DNA from: Candidatus Iainarchaeum sp.
Lineage (GTDB): Archaea > Iainarchaeota > Iainarchaeia > Iainarchaeales > DTGL01
Length of the DNA stretch: 27,284 nt
Reading direction: 5' to 3'
Assembly: GCA_038886995.1 (NCBI GenBank)
Contig: JAWALG010000012.1
Location: 1-27,284, forward strand
In this document: piece by piece, positions 1,251-15,321 of the stretch
Layout: each line of letters begins with the position of its first letter
Position numbering within the stretch: the stretch's first letter is position 1
The notes under the pieces: model-generated
Database searches by the model: none
What the model saw: only the letters and a program-made list of their open reading frames with translations
What the model was told of the DNA's origin: nothing
Made by a program: the position numbers and the translations under genes

Positions 1251-4184
1251 ATGAGCGAGGAGAAAAGGGTTGAAGTTGAAAAGGATACACAAGAAGAAGA
1301 CCTGTTTGAAGATGTTTTTGGCTTAGATGACGAGCTGAAAGAGGCCAGGAAAAAGCTAAACGAGGTCGCTAAGAAAGAATCTGAGAAGATGCAAAAAAGC
1401 ATATATGCAAAGGAGCCTCAAACTACTGAATCAAAGGGTGGTGCAGCTGAAAAGGAAAAAGAGGCTGTGCAGGAAGATAAGTCCCAAAAAGAAGGCGCTT
1501 CTAAAGATGAGGAAGAAGAGCAAGCTAAGGAGCGAAAGAAGAGTCAGCAAAGCAAAAAGAAACCAAAACAAAAAGAGAAAAAAGAAGAAAAAAAAGAAGA
1601 ACAAGAAGCAGGGCCATTAGAGAGTGATAAAGAGCCGATTGATGGCCAAGAAGCTTCTGAAAAAGTGGAACCAAGCGAAGACGATTTAACAGATTTCGTT
1701 GACGATACTGCTGCTCCTGAAGGCAAGATATTTGTTTCTGAGCCGACCCTTGAAATATTGCCTAAGCTCAGCTTCTTAGAGGACTCCCAAGGCAATGCCT
1801 TTATTGGCAGAAGCAAATCAACTTTTGAGAAGTATGGCTCTGAAGCAGCACTGTTCATTGGCAGGGTTTCTGAGGAAAACTATCCTGAGAAGAATATCCT
1901 TATGGACAGCTTAGGGCCACATGTTGTTTTTGTTTGTGGTGCTAGGGGCAGTGGAAAGAGTTATGTGCTTGGTGTTGTAGCAGAAGAGTTGGCCCTTAAA
2001 AACAAAAATGTTGGAGTCATTGTTGTTGATCCAGTTGGGGTTTTCTGGAGCATGCGTTACGCTAACCGCGAAGAAAGGGAGCTTGCATCACTAAAGAGCT
2101 GGGGTCTTGAGCCAAAAGGGCTTGAGAATATCGTGGTTTTTATCCCAAAAGGTATGGAAAAGCAAACACCAGCAGGCACATATGATGCAACCTTTTCAAT
2201 AAAGCCGTCTATGCTGACTGCTCAGGACTGGTGCCTTACTTTTGGGCTTGAGCGTTTCAGCCCAACAGGCCTTTTGCTTGAAAAGGCACTCGATAAGGTT
2301 GCAAAGGGCTATATTACTGTCAATAAGGAGCGCATAAAAGGCACTAAGGATTATTCAATAGATGATATAATATTCTGCCTTGAGAATGATATTGAATTAA
2401 GCTCAAGAGACAAAGGTTTTAAAGTTGATTCAATACGCGCTTTAGTGAGTAGATTTGAAGCTTCAAAAGCATGGGGTGTTTTTGATGTACAAGGAACACC
2501 TTTGTCTGAGCTTAGCAGAGAGGGGCAGCTTACAATAATAGATACGAGCTTTTTGGATGATAATGTCACAGCGCTTGTTATTGGAATACTAGCAAGGCGC
2601 ATACTTGCTGCAAGAAAACTTGCGACAAGAAAGGAAGCCGCCAAGAGATTTGAGTCAAGCGAAGAGATGCTTGAGGTTGAAATACCGCCAACATGGCTTG
2701 TGCTTGATGAAGCACACACGCTAATACCAAGCGGAAACATTAAGACGGCCGCTAGCGACGCGTTGATAGAATATGTAAAACAAGGAAGGCGGCCTGGTTG
2801 CTCACTTGTTTTTGCAACGCAGCAGCCATCAGCCATTGATGTCAGAGTACTGAGTCAACTCGATATAATAATAGTCCACAAGCTTGTTTTCAACGATGAT
2901 ATAAAGGCAGTTTACAAAAGGACACCCGCAATAATACCACACAGGTATAAAACCGGATCTTTCATAAGAACACTGCCTGTTGGTGTTGCTCTAGTGTGCG
3001 ACCGCAGGGAAGAGACAAGCCGCGGCTTTGTGATGCGAATAAGGCCTAGGATGAGCCAGCATGAAGGTCGTGAAATAGAAACAGCCGAAACTAAGGTTTC
3101 GCTTAGCAATGAGCAAGTTTTGAATCTTATTACCTCAATGTATTGGTCTAGGCTTAAAAGGGATGGCCAAGCAAAACTAGCTGAAATTTTCAGGACTCTT
3201 AATTCGCTAAACGCAAAGTACAGCTCAAGCGTTGATAAAAGAGCACTTTTGTCTGAACTTGAAAAGAAAGGCGCCACGATACTTGAAAAAGAAGGCCTTG
3301 TTGTACTGGAAGACAAGATTCAGAGGCCGGGACCTGTAAAAAAAGAAGAGACCACTGCTGCTGTAGCTCCTAAAACAGAAGCACCAAAAGAGCCAGAACA
3401 GGCAGTGCAGAGAGAGCAGCCCATGCAAAGGCCTGTGCCACAGCATGGCACTATTGAGCTATTAAGCTTTCCAGCAAATGTGTCAAGGGAAGCCATTGAA
3501 GCAAAAATAAGGAAAAGGCTTTCCGGCTTTTTATTTTTTGGAGGTACTGAGAAACTTGTTGAGCTGAACCTCAAGCATATTCCTCTCTATAAAGTCGAGT
3601 TCAATTACTTCACTAAAGAACAGAACTTCAGGCAAGGTGTTCTCTTTGTAAACTCATTAAATGGCGAATTCATACACTTTGTAAAGGGTATCTTCGTACA
3701 TTCAAAAGGCCTTAAAGAACTTTACAACCTTTCAGCAGAGGAAATCTTTGTCCTCAATTTCCTGACAGAGCCACTGACAGCATACCATATAAGCAGGAGA
3801 TCATTCCTGGATGAAGATCGAGTAAAGAAGATACTTAAGCGCCTTTGCGATGCTGGTCTAGCAGAAATATTCAATAAGGAAGGCATGATACTCTACAGAT
3901 TGAGCAAAGATTTCGACCTACCACCAAGCCCAATGCATCCTTTGCATCAGTCGCTTCAGGATTTGCCTCTTGTTAATACTGATGTCCTGATGAAAGAGCA
4001 AGAAAAGTATACAAAGAATGAGGTAAAAGACCTTCTGCAAAGAATATGGAAACGAATGGTTATAACTGCAGTCAAAGATGTCTACTGGCCCGTTTATGAG
4101 TGCATAACCGAAAACTCGAAGACAAAAGTTAAGAAAAGATTTTTTATTGATGCAGTCACAGGCCATGTAGTTTATCCATTATGA
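1251..4184 (+). CDS. HerA/FtsK-superfamily ATPase (DUF87-type) with charged low-complexity N-terminus and C-terminal winged-helix region
   Basis: Walker A GARGSGKS, VVDPVG, Walker B LVLDEAH, KQGRRPG arginine-finger region and ATQQPS motif. The first ~150 aa are E/K-rich. LTAYHISRRSFLDEDRVKKILKRLCDAGLA is wHTH-like. Confidence 0.85.
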   Translation: MSEEKRVEVEKDTQEEDLFEDVFGLDDELKEARKKLNEVAKKESEKMQKSIYAKEPQTTESKGGAAEKEKEAVQEDKSQKEGASKDEEEEQAKERKKSQQSKKKPKQKEKKEEKKEEQEAGPLESDKEPIDGQEASEKVEPSEDDLTDFVDDTAAPEGKIFVSEPTLEILPKLSFLEDSQGNAFIGRSKSTFEKYGSEAALFIGRVSEENYPEKNILMDSLGPHVVFVCGARGSGKSYVLGVVAEELALKNKNVGVIVVDPVGVFWSMRYANREERELASLKSWGLEPKGLENIVVFIPKGMEKQTPAGTYDATFSIKPSMLTAQDWCLTFGLERFSPTGLLLEKALDKVAKGYITVNKERIKGTKDYSIDDIIFCLENDIELSSRDKGFKVDSIRALVSRFEASKAWGVFDVQGTPLSELSREGQLTIIDTSFLDDNVTALVIGILARRILAARKLATRKEAAKRFESSEEMLEVEIPPTWLVLDEAHTLIPSGNIKTAASDALIEYVKQGRRPGCSLVFATQQPSAIDVRVLSQLDIIIVHKLVFNDDIKAVYKRTPAIIPHRYKTGSFIRTLPVGVALVCDRREETSRGFVMRIRPRMSQHEGREIETAETKVSLSNEQVLNLITSMYWSRLKRDGQAKLAEIFRTLNSLNAKYSSSVDKRALLSELEKKGATILEKEGLVVLEDKIQRPGPVKKEETTAAVAPKTEAPKEPEQAVQREQPMQRPVPQHGTIELLSFPANVSREAIEAKIRKRLSGFLFFGGTEKLVELNLKHIPLYKVEFNYFTKEQNFRQGVLFVNSLNGEFIHFVKGIFVHSKGLKELYNLSAEEIFVLNFLTEPLTAYHISRRSFLDEDRVKKILKRLCDAGLAEIFNKEGMILYRLSKDFDLPPSPMHPLHQSLQDLPLVNTDVLMKEQEKYTKNEVKDLLQRIWKRMVITAVKDVYWPVYECITENSKTKVKKRFFIDAVTGHVVYPL

Positions 4185-8106: not shown

Positions 8107-9069
8107 GTGGTTTCTTTGCAAGGCAAGATTTCTTTTGATAAGGATGGCAAAAGCTACCAAAGCTTTTGTGAGATTCTTCAGTCACCAGAAGCAATAAGGC
8201 CTCTTCTCAATGAGAAGTGCTGGCGGATATTTTGTGAGTTTGCCTCTGGCGAAAAATACCCTGCGGAGCTTGCCAAGAAACTAGGGCTTGGGCAACAGGA
8301 AGTTTACTATTACATAAATAAGCTTAAAAACGCAGGCCTTTTGGAGATCACAAAAAAAGAAGAAAAGCAAGGCGGTCTTGCAAAGTACTATGTTGCAACA
8401 AAAAAGTGTTTTGCATTTGTGCCATTCCCAGAGCAAAAGGTAAATATGGAGATAACAGGCCAGGAAAAGAGCATGCCAAAAGCGCTAGAGGGCTTTTTCC
8501 ACCCCTTCATAAGGAATGGTGTTTTGGATGCTAAGATTGTGATAGGCGCTCCAGATTCACATGGAGTATTCAAGGCAAGGGCCAGAGACGCGCATATTGC
8601 CGCAGAACTTTCATGTTTTCTTGGGCTTTTCTGCAACCGCATAAAGCAGCCATTTGTTTATCTTGACACAATGGTTGGGCCTATAAATGAAGAAAACGCA
8701 AACCTTATAGTTGTTGGTGGACCAATAACAAACAAGACAAGTGCTGAGGTTAATGAGCACCTAAGCATAAAATTTTGGCAGAAGAATGCACATTGGGTTA
8801 TAAAGAGCAAAAACTCGGATAAAGAGTATACAGAGGATTCAATAGGCATTGTTGAGAAAATTAAGCATCCTTTCTTTGAAGATCGCTCAATCTTATTCCT
8901 TGCTGGCAAGAGGAATGTCGGCACAAAGGCCTCTGTGCTTGCTTTGATGCTAAAGACAGCTGAAATGGCCATGCCGAACAGCTTCTCAGAGGGAAGAATT
9001 GCACACGTTGTTGAAGGCCTAGACCTTGATAGCGACGGCCAAGTTGACGATGTTGAGATTTTGGAATAA
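8107..9069 (+). CDS. ArsR-like winged-HTH protein fused to an S-layer-C-like domain (putative transcription regulator); start may be TTG 8116
   Basis: YPAELAKKLGLGQQEVYYYINKLKNAGLLEI..GGLAKYY is wHTH-like. NLIVVGGPITN resembles the S-layer C-terminal motif. The C-terminus contains DLDSDGQVDDVE. Confidence 0.75.
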   Translation: MVSLQGKISFDKDGKSYQSFCEILQSPEAIRPLLNEKCWRIFCEFASGEKYPAELAKKLGLGQQEVYYYINKLKNAGLLEITKKEEKQGGLAKYYVATKKCFAFVPFPEQKVNMEITGQEKSMPKALEGFFHPFIRNGVLDAKIVIGAPDSHGVFKARARDAHIAAELSCFLGLFCNRIKQPFVYLDTMVGPINEENANLIVVGGPITNKTSAEVNEHLSIKFWQKNAHWVIKSKNSDKEYTEDSIGIVEKIKHPFFEDRSILFLAGKRNVGTKASVLALMLKTAEMAMPNSFSEGRIAHVVEGLDLDSDGQVDDVEILE

Positions 9070-9135: not shown

Positions 9136-9933
9136 TTGATAACTATGCTTGATGCTCTGGCTGGCTCACTTGGTGTGATGCTTAAAAGGCCTTTTGCTTT
9201 GGTGCCTATTTTTATTATGATGTTAGCGCTTGCTCTTGTCTCAGTTTTTTTCCAGCTCGAGATGCTTGAGTTCATTTACTTCATGTCAACGAGCGAAGCA
9301 CCTTTAAGCAATCCAATCCATGCAATGTCTTACTTTCTTAATACTAACCCAAAAGGGCTTTTTTACATTTTTGACTATGCCTTTTTAGGCCTTGCTGCTT
9401 TTTTACTTATCTCTATTTATTACTGCCGCCTTATACTTACCAAAGATAAAAAGGGCAGCATAATGAGCGCACTGGCTTTCGCATTTGGCTCTCTTTGGAA
9501 CATTATTGTGCTCCTTGGAACAATGCTGCTTTTCTTTGTCTCTGCTTCTGTGATCTTGTTTGTAATCACGTTATTGCCAATATCGAACATTTACCTTTAC
9601 TTTGCTATAATGTTCTTGTTCATGTTAATTTTTTTGGTTCTTTATATACGCCTGTTCGCGTTTGTAATTCCAGCACTTGCCGAGGAGAAAACAAACACTA
9701 AAAAGGCATTGAAGAAAAATTGGGGCTTTGTTAATAAACATTTTTGGGCTACGCTGTTGCTTTTCTTTGTGCTTCTTCTGGTCTTACTTTTGACAGGCCT
9801 TTTATACAATGCTGCAGTAGAACCCTTTGAGGATAACATAACAGTTTTTTCAATCTTTGCTTTGTTTGGGACATTCAATGCTGCTTATTGCCTTGGCACA
9901 ATAGCACTTTACTACTCAAAGCACGAAAGATGA
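9136..9933 (+). CDS. Polytopic membrane protein of unknown function (likely start ATG 9145)
   Basis: About six hydrophobic segments. ALKKNWGFVNKHFW resembles the amphipathic motif of GDPD-membrane-domain-like proteins. Confidence 0.75.
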   Translation: MITMLDALAGSLGVMLKRPFALVPIFIMMLALALVSVFFQLEMLEFIYFMSTSEAPLSNPIHAMSYFLNTNPKGLFYIFDYAFLGLAAFLLISIYYCRLILTKDKKGSIMSALAFAFGSLWNIIVLLGTMLLFFVSASVILFVITLLPISNIYLYFAIMFLFMLIFLVLYIRLFAFVIPALAEEKTNTKKALKKNWGFVNKHFWATLLLFFVLLLVLLLTGLLYNAAVEPFEDNITVFSIFALFGTFNAAYCLGTIALYYSKHER

Positions 9934-9950
9934 CTTCAAGTGGTTAGCGT

Positions 9951-12902
9951 ATGGTTGAAATAAAGAAACTTGTTCTCAAGAACTTTAAGTCATTTAGAAG
10001 TGCCGAGATACCTTTTAAAAAAGGCCTTACCGCAATAATAGGGCCAAATGGCTCAGGCAAAAGCAATCTCTTAGATGCATTGCTTTTTGTCCTTGGCGAA
10101 ACATCAATGAAAAGCTTGAGGATGGGCAAGATAACCGAGCTTGTGAATTACAATGCAGCTGAAAAATATGCAAAGGTTGAGCTCAAGCTTAAGCGCGACA
10201 ATGAAGAAATAACAATAAGCCGCCTTATTGACAACAAAGGTCGAAGCGAATGCAGGATTAATGATAAGAAGGTCACACTTAATGAGCTCGTTTCACTTGT
10301 AGAGGAACTTGGCCTCAAGAGCAAGCACAATTTCATAGCACAAGGTGATATAACAAGGATAATTGAGATGAACCCTGAGCAGAGGCGCACAATAATAGAT
10401 GAACTTGCAGGGATCGAAGAATTTGAAATAAAGCGCAAGGAGGCACAGGTTAACCTTGATAAGGTCAACGAAAGGATAAAAGATGTAAAACTTGTGCTGC
10501 AGGAGAAGCTTGCACGGCTTGAGCAACTCCAAAAAGAGCGCGAACAGGCAGAGCGTTACAAGAGCCTTGTTGAAAGGAGGAATATGCTTAAGGCAAGCAT
10601 CATAAATTCTGAAGCCGAATCCATAAGGCAGGAGATACAGAAGAACAAGGAAAAGCTCACAGCATTGCAAGAAAAGGCCTCCAAAAGGGCTGCTGAAAAA
10701 GAATCAATCACTAAAAAGATTGCTGAGTTTGAAAAGAAAAGCGAGGAGCTTAGCAGGAAGATTGTTGAGGAACAACAGCAAATATACCAAGAGTTTGGAA
10801 CAAAGTCAGAAGAGCTTAGGACTGAAATAAGGGTTTCAGAGGAAATAATAAGCGCAAATTCTGCATCTATTTTGAAGATTGAATCTCAGGAAAATTCACT
10901 TGCTGCAGAGCTTCACAACTTGCTCAAAAGGCAAGATGAAGAAAGCCAGCGAATAGAAGCAATAAAGCTTGAGATTGAAGAGCAAAATTCGCTAATTGCA
11001 TCTATTGAAAGCGAGATTCAGCAGAAGGAGAAAGATATTCAAGCGGAATCGTCAAGAAAGGCCGAAATAGAGCAAGAAATATTTTCACTTGAGCAGGAAA
11101 TTGAGAAATTGCAGAACAAAGTAAAGATTAAGCAGAAGGAATTTGGCGAGATAAAAGGCGAGAATGATGTAAGGGAGAAGCGCATAAAGGAACTTTCTGT
11201 CGAACTGGCCAACTCAGACCAGCTAAAGGCATCAATCTCAAAGCTAAAAGAGCAACTGAATGTTTTAGAGTCGAAATCCTTGGAAGAGAAACTAAAAAAG
11301 CTTAGGGAACTTGAGCTTGAAGCCATCACTAAGGATGGTTTGCAGGCAGGGCTGATAAGTCAGTTAAAAGAGTCCCTTGCTGGCATAGAAAGCGCGTCAG
11401 CAAAATGCCCCATATGCGAGAGCAGCATTAGCCCAGAAAAAAAGAAAAAACTGCAAGAGAAAAAAATTAAGGAGCTCAAGACGGCTGAAATGCAGAAAAA
11501 CTCTATAGCAGAAAAGCTCAAAGACATTCGTGCCAAGATAAAGGATACTGAGTCAGATTTAGAGACATTCTCAAAGCTTGCACAAGAACTGCAAGCCAAA
11601 GAAAAAGAACTTAAGAGAATAGACGAGATAAAGAAAAAGATTGATGAAGAAAAAGGCAGCATGAGGGACTTAAAAGGCCTTTCAAACGAAATAGCATCTC
11701 TTGAGCAAAAGATTGCATCGCTTAACAGGTTACGCTCAGAAAAAAGAACACTTCTCGAGGAGCTTTCTCAATCTACCCGGGCAGAGAAATACTCACAACT
11801 AAGCGAGCTTAAAGGCCAGCTTTCTCTCCTCGAAAGTGACTTGCGAATTGCTGAAAGCACAATAAAAAACATTGCTGAAAGGACATCAACCATAAGGTCT
11901 AGAATCAATGAACTCGCAGTTGAAAAGCAGCAGTTGAATAAGCAAAAAGAAGAGAAGATGAAGGCAATAGAAGGCCTTAAAAAAGAGCTTGCAAAGATAG
12001 AGGAGAAGAAGCTTAAAAGGAGTGAACAGATAGCTTCTCTTCTAGAGGATAAAGAAGGCCTTCTCGGCATGATTCAAAAGCTTAAGACAGAGCTTAGCAT
12101 TGTGGATTCTGACATGGTTAAGGCAGAGCGTGACGGCAGTGAGATAAGGATTGAAGTTGGCAAGGCAGAGGTGCGCTTAGCAGACCTCGAAGAAGAACTT
12201 AAGGAAATCCCTAAGACGCAAATCATAAGTGATGTCACAATTAAAGATATGAAAAAGATGCTATCAGATGTAGACCGCGAGCTAAATTCAATTGGTGCAG
12301 TGAATCTGAGGGCTAGTGAAGCCGTAAGAGAAGAAGAAGAGCTTCTCCTCGAAGTAAAATCAAAGATAGAGAAACTTGAAGAAGAGCAAAAAGCAGTTGT
12401 GGATATGATACAAAAGATAGAGGTCAAAAAGAAAGAGATATTCATGGATTGCTTCGAAAAGATAAACAAGAATTTCTCTGACATGTTTTACAATTTCTTT
12501 GGTGGTACGGGCAAACTCAGCTTAACAGATTACGAGGATATAAGCAATGCAGGCCTTATAATTGAGGCAAAGCACAAAGAGAATTTGCAATCAATTGATG
12601 CCATGAGTGGGGGTGAAAAAACACTTACTGCATTGGCATTTATTTTTGCAATTCTTGTATATTCGCCAGCACCCTTATATGTCTTGGATGAAACAGATGC
12701 TGCCTTGGATGAAGTTAATTCAATAAAGGTTAGTAAAGTACTCGAAGAACTCTCTAAAAAGTCGCATATAATAGTTATTACCCACAACAATGTTGTTGTC
12801 AGGTATGCTATGCAAGTTTTGGGAGTCACTCTAACAAAATCAGGATCCCAGATAGTTGGCCTTGACCTCACAAAGCACCTTTCCGAGGCAACCGGGCAAT
12901 AG
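9951..12902 (+). CDS. smc: SMC-family chromosome segregation ATPase, hinge-less, with central CxxC zinc hook
   Basis: Walker A GPNGSGKSNLLDA, Q-loop IAQGDIT, PEQRRTIIDELAGI, GAVNLRA, signature MSGGEKTLTALA, PAPLYVLDETDAALD and VITH. Long coiled coils flank KCPICES at aa 485-491. Confidence 0.9.
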   Translation: MVEIKKLVLKNFKSFRSAEIPFKKGLTAIIGPNGSGKSNLLDALLFVLGETSMKSLRMGKITELVNYNAAEKYAKVELKLKRDNEEITISRLIDNKGRSECRINDKKVTLNELVSLVEELGLKSKHNFIAQGDITRIIEMNPEQRRTIIDELAGIEEFEIKRKEAQVNLDKVNERIKDVKLVLQEKLARLEQLQKEREQAERYKSLVERRNMLKASIINSEAESIRQEIQKNKEKLTALQEKASKRAAEKESITKKIAEFEKKSEELSRKIVEEQQQIYQEFGTKSEELRTEIRVSEEIISANSASILKIESQENSLAAELHNLLKRQDEESQRIEAIKLEIEEQNSLIASIESEIQQKEKDIQAESSRKAEIEQEIFSLEQEIEKLQNKVKIKQKEFGEIKGENDVREKRIKELSVELANSDQLKASISKLKEQLNVLESKSLEEKLKKLRELELEAITKDGLQAGLISQLKESLAGIESASAKCPICESSISPEKKKKLQEKKIKELKTAEMQKNSIAEKLKDIRAKIKDTESDLETFSKLAQELQAKEKELKRIDEIKKKIDEEKGSMRDLKGLSNEIASLEQKIASLNRLRSEKRTLLEELSQSTRAEKYSQLSELKGQLSLLESDLRIAESTIKNIAERTSTIRSRINELAVEKQQLNKQKEEKMKAIEGLKKELAKIEEKKLKRSEQIASLLEDKEGLLGMIQKLKTELSIVDSDMVKAERDGSEIRIEVGKAEVRLADLEEELKEIPKTQIISDVTIKDMKKMLSDVDRELNSIGAVNLRASEAVREEEELLLEVKSKIEKLEEEQKAVVDMIQKIEVKKKEIFMDCFEKINKNFSDMFYNFFGGTGKLSLTDYEDISNAGLIIEAKHKENLQSIDAMSGGEKTLTALAFIFAILVYSPAPLYVLDETDAALDEVNSIKVSKVLEELSKKSHIIVITHNNVVVRYAMQVLGVTLTKSGSQIVGLDLTKHLSEATGQ

Positions 12903-12904
12903 CT

Positions 12905-15298
12905 TTAATCAACTTTGTTTTTATTTTTCCTTTTAGGCAAAATTTTTTCTGAAGTTTTTTCTGTTTTATTCTTTTGTTGTTCAGCAAGTTCTGATTCTTC
13001 TGATTCAGTTTTGCTTTTTATATCAACTTTTAGTTTCTCTACTTTTGCGTTGTACTCCTCAACAAATTTGTTGTAATCTTCATCGGTTATCTCCCCTTGT
13101 GCGTAATGCTGTCTTATCTGCTCCAGAGTTGTTGCAAGCCCCTTTATCTCTCCAACCTGCCTGTCAAGCTCAACGAGCTTTTTTGAATGTTTTGATATCT
13201 CTTTCTTCAAATCAGCGATCTGCTTTTCGTATTCTGCCTTCTTCACAGCGTATTCTTCAGGGCTTATCTTTCCCCTTGCATGCATTAGGTTTATCTTTGT
13301 AAGTTCATTCTCAAGCTTTTCAACCTTCCTTTTTAACTGCTTTTTTGCAGTGTGTCTTTTCAACTTTGCCTTGTGAAGCCAAAATAGCAAAATTAATATC
13401 AATAGTATCAGTAGTACCGCGACTGAAATAATGGCCAGCAAGTAGGCATAATCCAATATCTGCATAGTGCTCTTATCTGCGTCTTCTTTGCTTGTGCTTT
13501 GCTCATCTCTTGTGAGTGGGGTCTGACTTCGTGTATTTTCCGCAGGTGGCAACTTTATAGTTAACTGCTTTTTATCTGATTCTTGAAGTGACTTTATGAT
13601 TTCCTTTGATGACGCAAATGTTTGTTCTGCAAGATAAGCCAAGCTTAGCGCTGCTTTCGCATTCTCGACTGCTTTCGAATTCATTCCTTCTGCTTCGTAA
13701 TATTCAGCTGCCTTTTTGAAGTACTCTGCATGGTCAAGATAAAGCTCAGCCCATATCAATGAATTATCTTTGGTTATTTCATTGTAAATTTCCCCATTTT
13801 TTTCATCAACCATTTTCTTTATCTCAGAAAGGCCTTTTTTGCCCAAATCTTCAAGCGATTTGCATAAGCTGTACGCGCTTGCGGCGTCCATGATTGCTGC
13901 ATCGTACCAGCCGATTTCAATGCCTGCCTTTGCAGACCTTATGCGCCTATCTATGTCATCATCTTTATCAGGTAGCTTTGAATAGCAGTTTTCAGCTTCT
14001 ATGAGCTTCTTTCTTGCACTTTCTTTTAGGTCCGGCTTTGCAGTGAATTTATCTTTGGCTTCTAATGCAATATTGTAAAAATCTCCTGAAATTTTATACC
14101 AACCAGAGGCAAACTCATAGTCCTTTAGCTTCTCAGCAATTGTTGCTTTGCTTTCTATGCTCTTTAAGCTTGTTTCAGCCCATAGTATTCTTTGCTTTGC
14201 AGCAATAATCCAATCGCTTCTTTCCAAAGTGTAAAAGCTTTCTAGAACCTTTTTCCTCTCCTGAACTTTTTCCATTAGCTCTTCTTTCCAGAATGATATT
14301 GTGCTTGAGTCAGCATCTAGCAAAGATGGGTTTTTAGCTACATCCTTAACGAAACCGGCATAAACACAGGAAAGAAATGCATTGTTTGCTGCAGAATATA
14401 GGTAATTTGCTTCATAGAGCATGTTTGCGTCTTTCATAAGTTTTTCCGCGCTTGTAATCGACTCGAGAAGTGCACTCATTATTTCCACATCTGGGTTAGA
14501 CATCTCATTTAAGGCATCCTTCGCCCCCTTAATTTCTTCTTTGCATTCGCGTATGTATTTCATCGTCAATTCTTTCATCGACTTCATTTTCTCCTTTAAG
14601 GTCTTCATCTCAGGTGCAAACGGCTCTTGTTCCTTAATTTTTGTATTAACATCTATTTGGCTAAGGTCCATGAATGCATACTTCAGCGCTTCGTCAATAT
14701 CAGCAACCTCAACTACAATCAAACCCCAGTTTTTTGGCGCATATTCTACAAGGTTTACTGTTTTTATCCCATCTGGAAACATGTGTGTTTGGTAAGCGTC
14801 TCCTTTTGGTATGAGGAAAAGCTTCATCCCTGACTCATGCGCTTTTTGGGCTTTGAGATAAACACCGCCGACAGAGCCAACAGTGCCATCCTCGTATATC
14901 TGGCCTGTTATTGAAACGTAGCTTGGCAGCCGTTTGTCTTGAAGCATGGATATAAGCAGAAGTGCCATTGCTGCGCCCGCGCTCGGACCTTCAACAACGC
15001 TTGCATCTGATTTTATATCAAACATATAATCATATTTGTTAACATCCGTTGAATAGTTTGCTGCAACGCTTACAGCTACTTTTTCAGTGTGCTGTGTTGA
15101 TGTGCCTATAAGAGGTCCTACCGAACTCCATATCCTGCCGCTGCCTGGCACAATTTTGATGCCAAGGTCAGCCCTCACTGCCGAGGTCTCAGATTCTACT
15201 ACTGCAAATATTGGGATACTTCCATTTTCTACTATCGCATAACAGCTACTCATTAGGTAAACTATTGATATAAGCAACAGCAGCAATTTCCCTTTCAT
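12905..15298 (-). CDS. Membrane-anchored S16 (Lon-like) serine protease, lacking an ATPase domain
   Basis: Signal peptide MKGKLLLLLISIVYLMSSCYA, catalytic VEGPSAGAA and ITGQIYEDGTVGSVGGVYLKAQKA (Ser-Lys dyad), helical ectodomain, transmembrane helix YLLAIISVAVLLILLILILLFW, and cytoplasmic coiled coil. ATG 15298 follows GTGA; the ORF track start is 15307. Confidence 0.85.
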   Translation of the reverse strand: MKGKLLLLLISIVYLMSSCYAIVENGSIPIFAVVESETSAVRADLGIKIVPGSGRIWSSVGPLIGTSTQHTEKVAVSVAANYSTDVNKYDYMFDIKSDASVVEGPSAGAAMALLLISMLQDKRLPSYVSITGQIYEDGTVGSVGGVYLKAQKAHESGMKLFLIPKGDAYQTHMFPDGIKTVNLVEYAPKNWGLIVVEVADIDEALKYAFMDLSQIDVNTKIKEQEPFAPEMKTLKEKMKSMKELTMKYIRECKEEIKGAKDALNEMSNPDVEIMSALLESITSAEKLMKDANMLYEANYLYSAANNAFLSCVYAGFVKDVAKNPSLLDADSSTISFWKEELMEKVQERKKVLESFYTLERSDWIIAAKQRILWAETSLKSIESKATIAEKLKDYEFASGWYKISGDFYNIALEAKDKFTAKPDLKESARKKLIEAENCYSKLPDKDDDIDRRIRSAKAGIEIGWYDAAIMDAASAYSLCKSLEDLGKKGLSEIKKMVDEKNGEIYNEITKDNSLIWAELYLDHAEYFKKAAEYYEAEGMNSKAVENAKAALSLAYLAEQTFASSKEIIKSLQESDKKQLTIKLPPAENTRSQTPLTRDEQSTSKEDADKSTMQILDYAYLLAIISVAVLLILLILILLFWLHKAKLKRHTAKKQLKRKVEKLENELTKINLMHARGKISPEEYAVKKAEYEKQIADLKKEISKHSKKLVELDRQVGEIKGLATTLEQIRQHYAQGEITDEDYNKFVEEYNAKVEKLKVDIKSKTESEESELAEQQKNKTEKTSEKILPKRKNKNKVD

Positions 15299-15321
15299 AT
15301 GAATCACACTTATGGATAGCC

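Follow-up and report, generated by a model that had tools for sequence, protein, structure and literature searches.

The gene at positions 9951..12902 (+ strand) of the window, by which we mean the whole analysed stretch of 27,284 nucleotides, very probably encodes the only Smc of this organism, which would be the ATPase subunit of an Smc-ScpA-ScpB complex, and a Rad50-homologous zinc hook has taken the place of its hinge. The hinge is usually treated as a hallmark of SMC proteins and is credited with roles in DNA binding, gating and arm opening. The two exchanged modules differ in size, the hinge taking up about 230 model positions and the hook roughly 35 residues.

Architecture of the protein

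The gene starts with ATG and encodes 983 amino acids. Its features are arranged as follows.

9951..12902, + strand: whole gene of the hook-bearing, hinge-less Smc; ATG start, 983 aa plus stop
9951..10445, + strand: N-terminal ATPase half-head, aa 1 to ~165, with Walker A and Q-loop; matches Smc heads in the PDB
nt 10041-10064, + strand: Walker A GPNGSGKS, inside the N-terminal half-head
within the N-terminal half-head, + strand: Q-loop Gln131, invariant in 77/77 relatives
10413..11390, + strand: ascending coiled-coil arm, aa 155-480; AlphaFold2 (AF2) helices 155-205, 216-440 and 444-480
11385..11453, + strand: Rad50-type zinc hook IESASAKCPICESSISPEKKKKL, aa 479-501; CPIC at nt 11406-11417
11433..12293, + strand: descending coiled-coil arm, aa 495-781; AF2 helices 495-739 and 764-780
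12294..12899, + strand: C-terminal half-head, aa 782-983, with GAVNLRA, signature, Walker B and H-loop His945
nt 12606-12623, + strand: signature SGGEKT, C-terminal half-head
nt 12675-12692, + strand: Walker B LYVLDE, C-terminal half-head

A first-pass annotation had described Smc heads, helical arms and an apical CPIC without a hinge, and all six sequence strings that it quoted are present in the protein. The head strings were located at aa 31-50 (GPNGSGKSNLLDALLFVLGE), 142-155 (PEQRRTIIDELAGI), 782-788 (GAVNLRA), 886-901 (SGGEKTLTALAFIFAI) and 906-920 (PAPLYVLDETDAALD), and the apex string AKCPICESSISPE corresponds to aa 484-496 with CPIC at aa 486-489. Just four cysteine residues occur in the entire chain (positions 101, 486, 489 and 834). 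The AlphaFold2 monomer (mean pLDDT 79.2) is helical from residue 155 to 850 with one apical loop at 481-494, shows a low-confidence break in the descending arm at aa 740-763 and contains no globular domain between the heads. SMC_hinge (PF06470) was matched in the protein neither by Pfam nor by a custom hinge HMM, and together with the AF2 model these searches found no hinge fold in aa 430-620. The Pfam profile that had been expected was recovered in part: SMC_N was present (3.3e-42) and SMC_hinge absent, but Rad50_zn_hook matched aa 469-511 with 20.9 bits and stayed under its cut-off of 24.3 bits.

Descent of the heads

The Smc-type ABC head motifs (Walker A, Q-loop, SGGE, D-E of Walker B and H-loop) are complete and invariant in 77/77 aligned relatives, and the same holds for K37, R57 and Q131. 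SMC_prok_A (TIGR02169) aligned to aa 4-452 with 502 bits, covering model positions 2-462, and SMC_prok_B (TIGR02168) aligned to aa 489-972 with 435.5 bits, covering model positions 691-1180. Both scores miss the NCBIfam equivalog cut-offs of 729.4 and 567.35 bits, respectively; what is missing lies in the hinge positions, at about 463-690 of the models. The top Rad50 model yielded 132 bits. Smc heads were also the top matches in the PDB, e.g. 5xei with 2.6e-83, compared to 1.9e-16 for Rad50. Walker B reads LYVLDETD in the hook-type Smc, whereas the genome's own Rad50 has LILDEPT.

The head-column tree separated 92 Smc-like rows from 6 Rad50 rows with a support of 100, which agrees with the earlier claim that the heads are those of Smc and not of Rad50. 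Within Smc the nodes above the studied heads received supports of 70, 98, 91 and 92. A clade of 55 rows (39 with a hook, 15 with neither module and one with a hinge) was recovered with an SH-aLRT of 92, and its union with a sister clade, in which 18 of the 19 rows carry a hinge, with an SH-aLRT of 91. This tree stems from a quick search on Smc-like and Rad50 sequences, and certain inner nodes are weak (21-69); a FastTree analysis of 174 rows gave the same picture. The head phylogeny that the first-pass annotation had proposed was thus obtained with Smc and Rad50 and places the heads inside Smc; the ASRP model gave 118 bits against a cut-off of 300. The heads are nested among archaeal Smc proteins that have a hinge, at a large distance from Rad50. 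Since it combines Smc heads with the lack of a hinge domain, the protein is an Smc by descent and not by textbook architecture.

Membership in a hook-bearing SMC-related family, either as a Rad50 paralogue or as one of the ASRP/ClsN/Sph proteins with a role in repair or compartment formation, would also account for a zinc hook without a hinge, as found in Rad50 and, according to PMC9389158, in ASRPs. The ASRP model (NF045487) does produce a match, but its 118 bits stand against a cut-off of 300 bits and the genome scan gave 45.8 bits. Rad50 models remained at or below 132 bits compared to 502 bits for Smc, the Rad50 split has a support of 100, Walker B is LYVLDETD and not LILDEPT, and a separate, full and hook-bearing Rad50 is present. 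This assignment is therefore very unlikely. No ASRP over the cut-off was detected in a scan of 215 genomes. Matches to the ASRP model of 90-123 bits (frames of 556-772 aa) were read as short-arm Rad50 and overlap the Rad50 matches where compared (e.g. G171 and G072).

Homology of the apex to Rad50 hooks

Among the 77 aligned relatives C486 and C489 are invariant (77/77) and are the sole invariant columns from L169 to G782; P487 is conserved in 76/77. The cysteines of the Cys-Pro-x-Cys motif are likewise invariant in 23/23 sequences of the apex profile, and CxxC is kept in 90 of the best 120 database matches, so that the conservation on which the first-pass annotation depended is found. A chance CxxC is ruled out by the invariance of both cysteines. 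No protein with both hook and hinge occurred among the relatives examined.

A search of the whole PDB with the apex profile (23 sequences) returned the Rad50 hook 1l8d on top (1.1e-12), followed by 6zff (8.8e-12) and, at lower ranks, 5gox (1.5e-4) and 9q9h (4.4e-3), before an unrelated chain appeared for the first time at 6.8e-3. Alignment of the apex with the hooks of the order's own Rad50 by hhalign reached a probability of 98.9 and a score of 81 with CPxC in register, compared to probabilities of 3-17 and scores of 15-20 for six coiled-coil control windows. The folded apex fragment (pLDDT 89.5) was compared with 350,542 chains by Foldseek. Chains A and B of 1l8d were the top two matches (TM 0.84, rmsd 2.1, 100 columns), with E values of 3.8e-3 and 4.9e-3 that fall short of the 1e-3 line and have prefoldin-like helical hairpins close behind. 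The Pfam cut-off for Rad50_zn_hook is passed by the relatives P0112, P0149 and P0071. Positions common in the flanks of Rad50 hooks are kept, namely L/I at +7, K/R at +12 and L/I/V at +15 from the first cysteine. The residue following the second cysteine is acidic (Asp/Glu) in 74/77 hook-type Smc proteins and Arg or Lys in 13/18 Rad50 proteins of the order. The apex is homologous to the solved Rad50 hooks.

In the solved Rad50 hook 1l8d, a tetrahedral zinc site is completed by two chains. By the proposed mechanism, Cys486 and Cys489 from each of two protomers would hold one tetrahedral Zn2+ at the arm tips, and the shared ion would create the constitutive apical dimer that is normally supplied by the hinge. 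With the kleisin ScpA, together with ScpB, forming a bridge between the Smc heads, the usual ATP cycle would serve to entrap DNA and extrude loops. What the analysis shows is the architecture, the Smc descent of the heads, the relationship of the apex to solved Rad50 hooks, the partner genes and the conservation in an order; that this Smc binds zinc, pairs with itself through the hook and acts as a condensin is inferred.

Partner genes, arm lengths and assembly

The same genome encodes ScpA (50.6 bits) and ScpB (E 4.8e-32), as well as a separate full Rad50 whose own hook scores 29.9 bits in Pfam. A six-frame scan of the genome, which is 88.6% complete, revealed no hinge in any frame at E<=1. 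This rules out a hidden hinge as a separate gene in the assembled part of the genome, while a second smc in the missing part is improbable. The question whether the genome contains a separate rad50 and a hinge-bearing smc was answered with yes for the former, whereas the latter was not found. ScpA was detected in 56/61 and ScpB in 57/61 sampled genomes of the order, and each in 29/29 high-quality genomes.

The antiparallel arms are long, belong to an allowed length class and are helical throughout in the AF2 model. The first cysteine stands 333 aa from the head anchor, and this distance is 333-335 aa in 88/106 hook-type relatives. From the second cysteine to the C-head anchor 293 aa were counted, and 299-300 aa in 67/106 hook-type relatives. 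The whole span between the head anchors is 629 aa as opposed to mostly 750-810 aa in hinge-bearing relatives. Among relatives, arm lengths step by about 90-94 aa, and the short forms differ by about one superhelical period of the coiled coil. The main arm-length mode of Burmann et al. 2017 (PMC5344682) is 341 aa, a comparison that is approximate as the anchors differ.

The source genome is a 38-contig metagenome-type assembly, which would be compatible with an assembly or binning artefact that fused an Smc gene to a Rad50 fragment. However, a contig of 16,695 bases that stems from the sequencing data of a different study covers all 3,051 compared bases with 158 substitutions and 0 gaps, and this independent contig spanning the gene contradicts the chimeric assembly against which the first-pass annotation had cautioned. 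The hook architecture was furthermore found in 90 of the best 120 database matches, which come from many sources, and in 22/22 further genomes, and the arm lengths flanking the hook are constant to within a few residues. An artefact is effectively refuted. With regard to architecture and descent, none of the analyses directed against a natural, hook-bearing and hinge-less Smc came out against it.

Distribution in the order and hook-deleted relatives

The trait marks almost the entire order of small DPANN archaea, which the sources mostly label Diapherotrites/Iainarchaeum. A hinge was found in 2/196 genomes of the order, compared to 17/19 in sister orders, and the hook-Smc architecture was seen in all 22 further genomes in which the genes were read directly (22/22). 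The protein P0112 had been considered as an example from a second phylum. It was dropped, since it turned out to be identical to the gene in G023, which belongs to the order under study. A search for related loci with this divergent hook protein returned its own contig alone. Forms of 1082-1096 aa (family f9) have an odd middle region, for which a comparison with the hinge by hhalign gave a probability of 32% and an E value of 4.8e-4.

Nested in the hook clade are hook-deleted forms of about 905-949 aa, which account for 11/48 rows of the clade core and have lost 40-60 residues including the hook. Families f4 and f23 possess such Smc proteins of 926-929 aa. An Smc of 928 aa is found in G019, a genome that is 99% complete and in which no hinge was found, and the sampled genomes of family f4 retain ScpA (3/3) and ScpB (3/3). 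The presence of these forms within the hook clade together with the retention of ScpA and ScpB indicates that some relatives can do without the hook.

These relatives bear on whether the CPxC apex, although derived from Rad50, still serves as a dimerisation device. If it did not, the arms might zip and the dimer would be held by heads and kleisin, while the cysteines could, for example, serve in redox switching, form a stabilising knuckle or bind another hook-bearing protein. The nesting of hook-deleted relatives in the hook clade, in near-complete hinge-free genomes such as G019, and the ScpA and ScpB genes kept by hook-deleted families (3/3 each in f4) point in this direction. However, both cysteines are invariant in 77/77 and 23/23 sequences amid about 600 surrounding residues without any other invariant column, the Rad50-like flanking positions +7, +12 and +15 are retained, and with two cysteines per chain, a second chain is needed to complete the tetrahedral coordination of zinc. 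A non-dimerising apex is thus improbable, and a hook that links two protomers is the preferred reading for the 983-aa Smc.

A broader scenario, which is rather speculative, is that the apical dimerisation module of Smc is plastic and finally dispensable. The hinge might have given way to a hook captured from Rad50, and this hook might in turn have been cut out in several sublineages (f4 and f23), leaving Smc-ScpAB with a bare hairpin apex and without any domain devoted to dimerisation. As a bolder extension, the hooks of Smc and Rad50 within one cell, with acidic versus basic residues after the second cysteine, could pair and thereby tether condensin to the repair complex.

The hinge has been replaced naturally in strongly reduced genomes that still retain ScpA and ScpB. 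If these proteins are condensins, Smc-ScpAB function in these organisms would need only a stable apical link, as suggested by a Bacillus subtilis chimera. The hook-deleted relatives raise the question of whether an apical dimerisation domain is required at all. In addition, with both arms constant to within a few residues, the family provides a natural dataset for arm-length rules, and its small hinge-free Smc proteins are material for structural work.

Comparison with known systems

Canonical Smc of Smc-ScpAB (TIGR02169/TIGR02168; Pyrococcus 5xei and 4i99) resembles the protein in head motifs, phylogeny, arm length and the partners ScpA and ScpB, but possesses an SMC_hinge and an anchor span of mostly 750-810 aa instead of 629 aa. 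The Rad50 hook (PF04423; 1l8d, 6zff, 5gox) shares the CPxC atop an antiparallel coiled coil as well as the matching flanks. It is carried by Rad50 heads, however, and has a basic residue after the second cysteine in 13/18 proteins, whereas Asp/Glu is found here on Smc heads. ASRPs (ClsN, Sph1/2; Yoshinaga et al. 2022, PMC9389158) are archaeal SMC-superfamily proteins that carry a zinc hook and lack a hinge. The model NF045487 comprises 593 positions in contrast to the 983 aa of the present protein, whose heads score as Smc.

A natural clade of 'hinge-less' SMC was described in marine Actinobacteria, and the authors state that CXXC is absent (PMC12153180, 2025). These bacterial proteins resemble the hook-deleted sublineages rather than the 983-aa Smc. 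According to Tatebe et al. 2020 (PMC6969161), fission yeast Rad50 carrying the MukB hinge demonstrates that the two dimerisation modules, hook and hinge, can substitute for each other; this protein was engineered, and the swap took the opposite direction to that in the present Smc.

The literature searched contained no natural Smc with a hook in place of the hinge, but only engineered hinge-to-hook chimeras. The functional B. subtilis chimera mentioned in the first-pass annotation is real: with Smc(Zh), in which the Pyrococcus furiosus Rad50 hook was substituted for the hinge, cells grow normally on rich medium (Burmann et al. 2017, PMC5344682). The strain names of that paper contain junctions, smc(1-480, hook, 691-1186) for instance, that lie close to the points at which the model alignments stop (462) and resume (691) in the archaeal protein. 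In both proteins, the heads and arms of Smc are joined to an apical hook of the Rad50 type. Smc(Zh) is man-made, bacterial and laboratory-tested only, whereas the Smc described here is natural, archaeal and order-wide, and carries a hook signature of its own in the acidic residue after the second cysteine (74/77).

Architecture of the Smc protein

The first-pass annotation described a condensin-type Smc in which the hinge is replaced by a zinc hook, and all motifs that it quoted were recovered in the protein at their positions. The features concerned are:

9951-12902, + strand: hook-type smc open reading frame, 983 aa, ATG start
11406-11417, + strand: CPIC motif, aa 486-489 of 983

The protein contains four cysteines in total. 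Pfam identified SMC_N (3.3e-42) and no SMC_hinge, both as expected, but the anticipated Rad50_zn_hook match at aa 469-511 stayed below threshold (20.9 bits, cut-off 24.3). The NCBIfam model SMC_prok_A aligned aa 4-452 with its positions 2-462 (502 bits), and SMC_prok_B aligned aa 489-972 with its positions 691-1180 (435.5 bits). Both scores lie under the equivalog cut-offs because the hinge positions are missing. At the sequence level, the hinge, about 230 positions of the Smc models, is replaced by about 36 residues. Rad50 models reached 132 bits at most, and the model of the archaea-specific SMC-related proteins (ASRPs; ClsN and Sph) 118 bits. The top PDB sequence matches were Smc heads (5xei, 2.6e-83), followed at a distance by Rad50 heads (1.9e-16). 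An AlphaFold2 model based on 77 relatives (mean pLDDT 79.2) consists of helix from residue 155 to 850 with a single apical loop at 481-494. It contains no globular domain between the heads, in agreement with the Pfam result and with the proposed absence of a hinge.

Over positions 9900-12950, Logan contigs from four runs were compared. In the run that is probably the source, the hook is covered with zero differences. A chimeric assembly, raised beforehand as an objection, did not materialise, as a single 16,695-base contig from a run of another study spans the whole interval with 158 substitutions and no gaps.

Genomic context

The host genome comprises 866 kb in 38 contigs and is 88.6% complete. 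The gene content of the window is archaeal (Spt5, L10P, L1, L11, FtsZ, GatE and aIF2B-like proteins), and the closest relatives are mostly labelled Candidatus Diapherotrites or "ainarchaeum" by their sources. Besides the window gene, SMC_N matched two ABC ATPases and a protein of 796 aa encoded on contig 3. The latter is a regular Rad50, judged by its CPTC at residue 413, its Walker B motif LILDEPT and its Pfam matches (Rad50_zn_hook, 29.9 bits; SbcC_Walker_B), and its gene adjoins a HerA-like gene. Thus a separate rad50 is present, and no hinge-bearing smc was found in a six-frame scan of this 88.6% complete genome at E<=1. A model scan of the genome found no ASRP. ScpA (237 aa, 50.6 bits) and ScpB (E 4.8e-32) are encoded on contigs other than that of smc. 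Three further genes of the window were noted:

1251-4184, + strand: 977-aa protein carrying the HerA-type ATPase domains DUF87 and HerA_C and, near its C-terminus, a weak TrmB-type helix-turn-helix match (E 2e-4, below Pfam's cut-off)
8107-9069, + strand: 320-aa protein with an S-layer-like outer domain and ArsR/TrmB-type helix-turn-helix matches (E about 2e-4, each slightly below its Pfam cut-off)
12905-15307, - strand: 800-aa protein encoded convergently to smc, the stop codons lying 3 nt apart; it has a Lon-type (S16) protease domain at its N-terminus, a hydrophobic stretch, a SHOCT-like motif and a helical tail that is long and charged

The apex as a Rad50-type hook

Among the 120 best database matches, 90 harbor a midpoint CP[VTIL]C (CLVC in one of these), 19 a hinge and 11 neither; none of the 120 combines hook and hinge. 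In an alignment of 77 of the 90 (five with inteins, six with short arms and two partial proteins were left out), C486 and C489 are invariant in all 77 and P487 in 76. Between L169 and G782, no column other than the two cysteines is invariant. The apex consensus is L-x-K-x-x-[SA]-x-C-P-[VTI]-C-[DE]-S-x-[LI]-x-x-x-[KR]-K-x-x-[LI].

An 81-column apex profile was compared by hhalign with the hook region of 18 Rad50 proteins from the order of small DPANN archaea that holds the host genome. It matched with a probability of 98.9 and a score of 81, with CPxC in register; six coiled-coil control windows gave probabilities of 3-17 and scores of 15-20. A second apex alignment was built from genes taken directly from the window and 22 further genomes. 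The latter were picked for open frames of ~983-1037 aa and are thus a biased sample, in which all 22 contain CP.C. Searched against 177,635 distinct PDB sequences, this profile retrieved Rad50 hooks as its four top matches (1l8d, 1.1e-12; 6zff, 8.8e-12; human 5gox, 1.5e-4; 9q9h, 4.4e-3), the first unrelated chain following right behind 9q9h at 6.8e-3. The apex fragment was confidently predicted to fold as a helical hairpin (pLDDT 89.5), for which Foldseek ranked 1l8d chains A and B at the top of 350,542 chains (TM 0.84, rmsd 2.1 over 100 columns), with weak E-values (3.8e-3 and 4.9e-3) and other hairpins next. The hhalign comparison, the PDB profile search and the fold search link the apex to Rad50, and it is a Rad50-type hook. 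The residue after the second cysteine differs between the two families, being Asp/Glu in 74 of 77 hook Smc proteins and Arg/Lys in 13 of 18 Rad50 proteins of the order. The close match to the order's own Rad50 hooks suggests that the hook was captured from Rad50; as the segment lacks the length needed for a tree, we infer this from sequence likeness.

Descent of the heads

The head tree was based on 168 proteins from two database searches, minus 10 that were partial, intein-bearing or without recognisable motif, and on 16 Rad50 proteins of the order, two with unclear starts being left out. Separate alignments were made for the N- and C-terminal blocks of the head. In the FastTree phylogeny of 174 rows, all 39 hook-type proteins fall into a single clade of 55 with support 0.97; this clade is nested among hinge-bearing Smc proteins, and a very long branch sets it apart from Rad50. 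A quick IQ-TREE search (LG+C20+F+G4, SH-aLRT, 358 columns) used 98 rows, none of them ASRPs: the clade of 55, 19 sisters, six Rad50 and 18 other Smc-like proteins drawn at random from 84, all hinge-type. Support was 100 for the separation of Rad50, 92 for the clade of 55 (39 hook, 15 neither, one hinge), 91 for its union with the sister clade of 19 (18 hinge) and 94 for a core of 48 (37 hook, 11 neither, no hinge); some inner nodes were weak (21-69). The heads are thus those of Smc and not of Rad50, as proposed.

The 11 proteins with neither apex in this core belong to a hook-deleted class of 905-942 aa in which both the hinge and the CxxC are absent (database proteins P0059, P0064, P0089, P0090, P0092-P0095, P0097, P0133, P0136, P0139, P0142 and P0146; loci L041, L046 and L047 of genomes G019, G016 and G164). 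In the alignment a deletion of 40-60 residues takes out the hook. These proteins occur in near-complete genomes retaining ScpA, ScpB and Rad50. Family f9 of the order has Smc proteins of 1076-1096 aa (P0156, P0119, P0167; locus L042 of genome G027) with no CxxC, no Pfam hinge and a middle region unlike coiled coil. This region matched the hinge in hhalign with a probability of only 32% (E 4.8e-4) and may be a degenerate hinge kept in one family. Inteins occur upstream of the hook in P0031, P0050, P0082 and P0143 (1538-1560 aa) and in P0078 and P0087 (1198-1206 aa), according to precomputed Pfam LAGLIDADG and intein-splicing domains.

Distribution in the phylum

In the searchable set of 215 species genomes of the phylum, the N-terminal head was found in 211 and SMC_hinge in 19. 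The hinge occurs in 17 of 19 sister-order genomes, whereas only two of 196 genomes of the order contain it. In one of these, G133 (about 3% contamination), the match lies on a small contig in a frame of 544 aa; G154, of family f18, is the other. Of the 150 head matches listed, about 100 lie, by our own reading, in open frames of 983-1058 aa.

Rad50, ScpA and ScpB in the order sample (all genomes; high-quality genomes)
Rad50: 60/61; 29/29
ScpB: 57/61; 29/29
ScpA: 56/61; 29/29

Rad50 proteins of the order fall into two size classes, one of about 780-800 aa and one of about 680-720 aa (e.g. loci L019-L028). With the ASRP model, members of the short class reach 90-123 bits, far short of the cut-off, and could be misnamed. 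One Rad50 match (G014:C11:87639-89980) contains many stops, eight TGA and two TAA in one frame; either the gene has decayed or the match is out of frame.

Arm lengths

Arms were measured in 106 hook-type proteins with both head anchors found. In 88 of them the N-head anchor is 333-335 aa away from the first cysteine; the second cysteine is 299-300 aa away from the C-head anchor in 67 of the 106, and 289-301 aa away from it in 94. Nine short-arm forms of 772-810 aa (P0052, P0071, P0074-P0077, P0132, P0138 and P0147) show 223-241 and 191-210 aa, respectively, which gives steps of ~94 and ~90 aa, about one coiled-coil superhelical period per arm. In Burmann et al. (PMC5344682), natural arm-length modes lie ~100 aa apart, and the viability screen has a period of 91 aa, near the superhelical period of roughly 99 aa. 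The anchor-to-anchor span of long hook forms (629-638 aa, compared with mostly 750-810 aa in hinge forms) fits the earlier reading of full-length arms minus a hinge.

Proposed mechanism and relation to known systems

By homology to solved Rad50 hooks, two Smc protomers would be expected to coordinate a single shared zinc with four cysteines at the tips of their arms, which would give a permanent apical dimer. The ATPase residues K37, R57, Q131, S886-E889, D913, E914 and H945 are invariant in the aligned relatives. Together with the retained ScpA and ScpB, this points to an ordinary Smc-ScpAB cycle; zinc binding, hook dimerisation and condensin activity are what we infer for this protein. The B. 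subtilis hinge-to-hook chimera mentioned in the first-pass annotation proved real: Smc engineered to carry the P. furiosus hook showed close to normal arm alignment and allowed normal growth on rich medium, and the authors concluded that it does not matter for chromosome segregation in B. subtilis which fold the dimerisation domain has (PMC5344682).

Full-text searches of the main text of openly accessible articles found no natural Smc with a zinc hook reported. The hook/hinge chimeras described there are engineered (PMC5344682, PMC6969161; both cited in the review PMC7752040). A survey that groups DPANN SMC with canonical archaeal SMC does not contain the word "hook" (PMC8665677). The hinge-less SMC of marine Actinobacteria (2025) differs in explicitly lacking a CXXC (PMC12153180), and the ASRPs constitute a separate hook-bearing family (PMC9389158).
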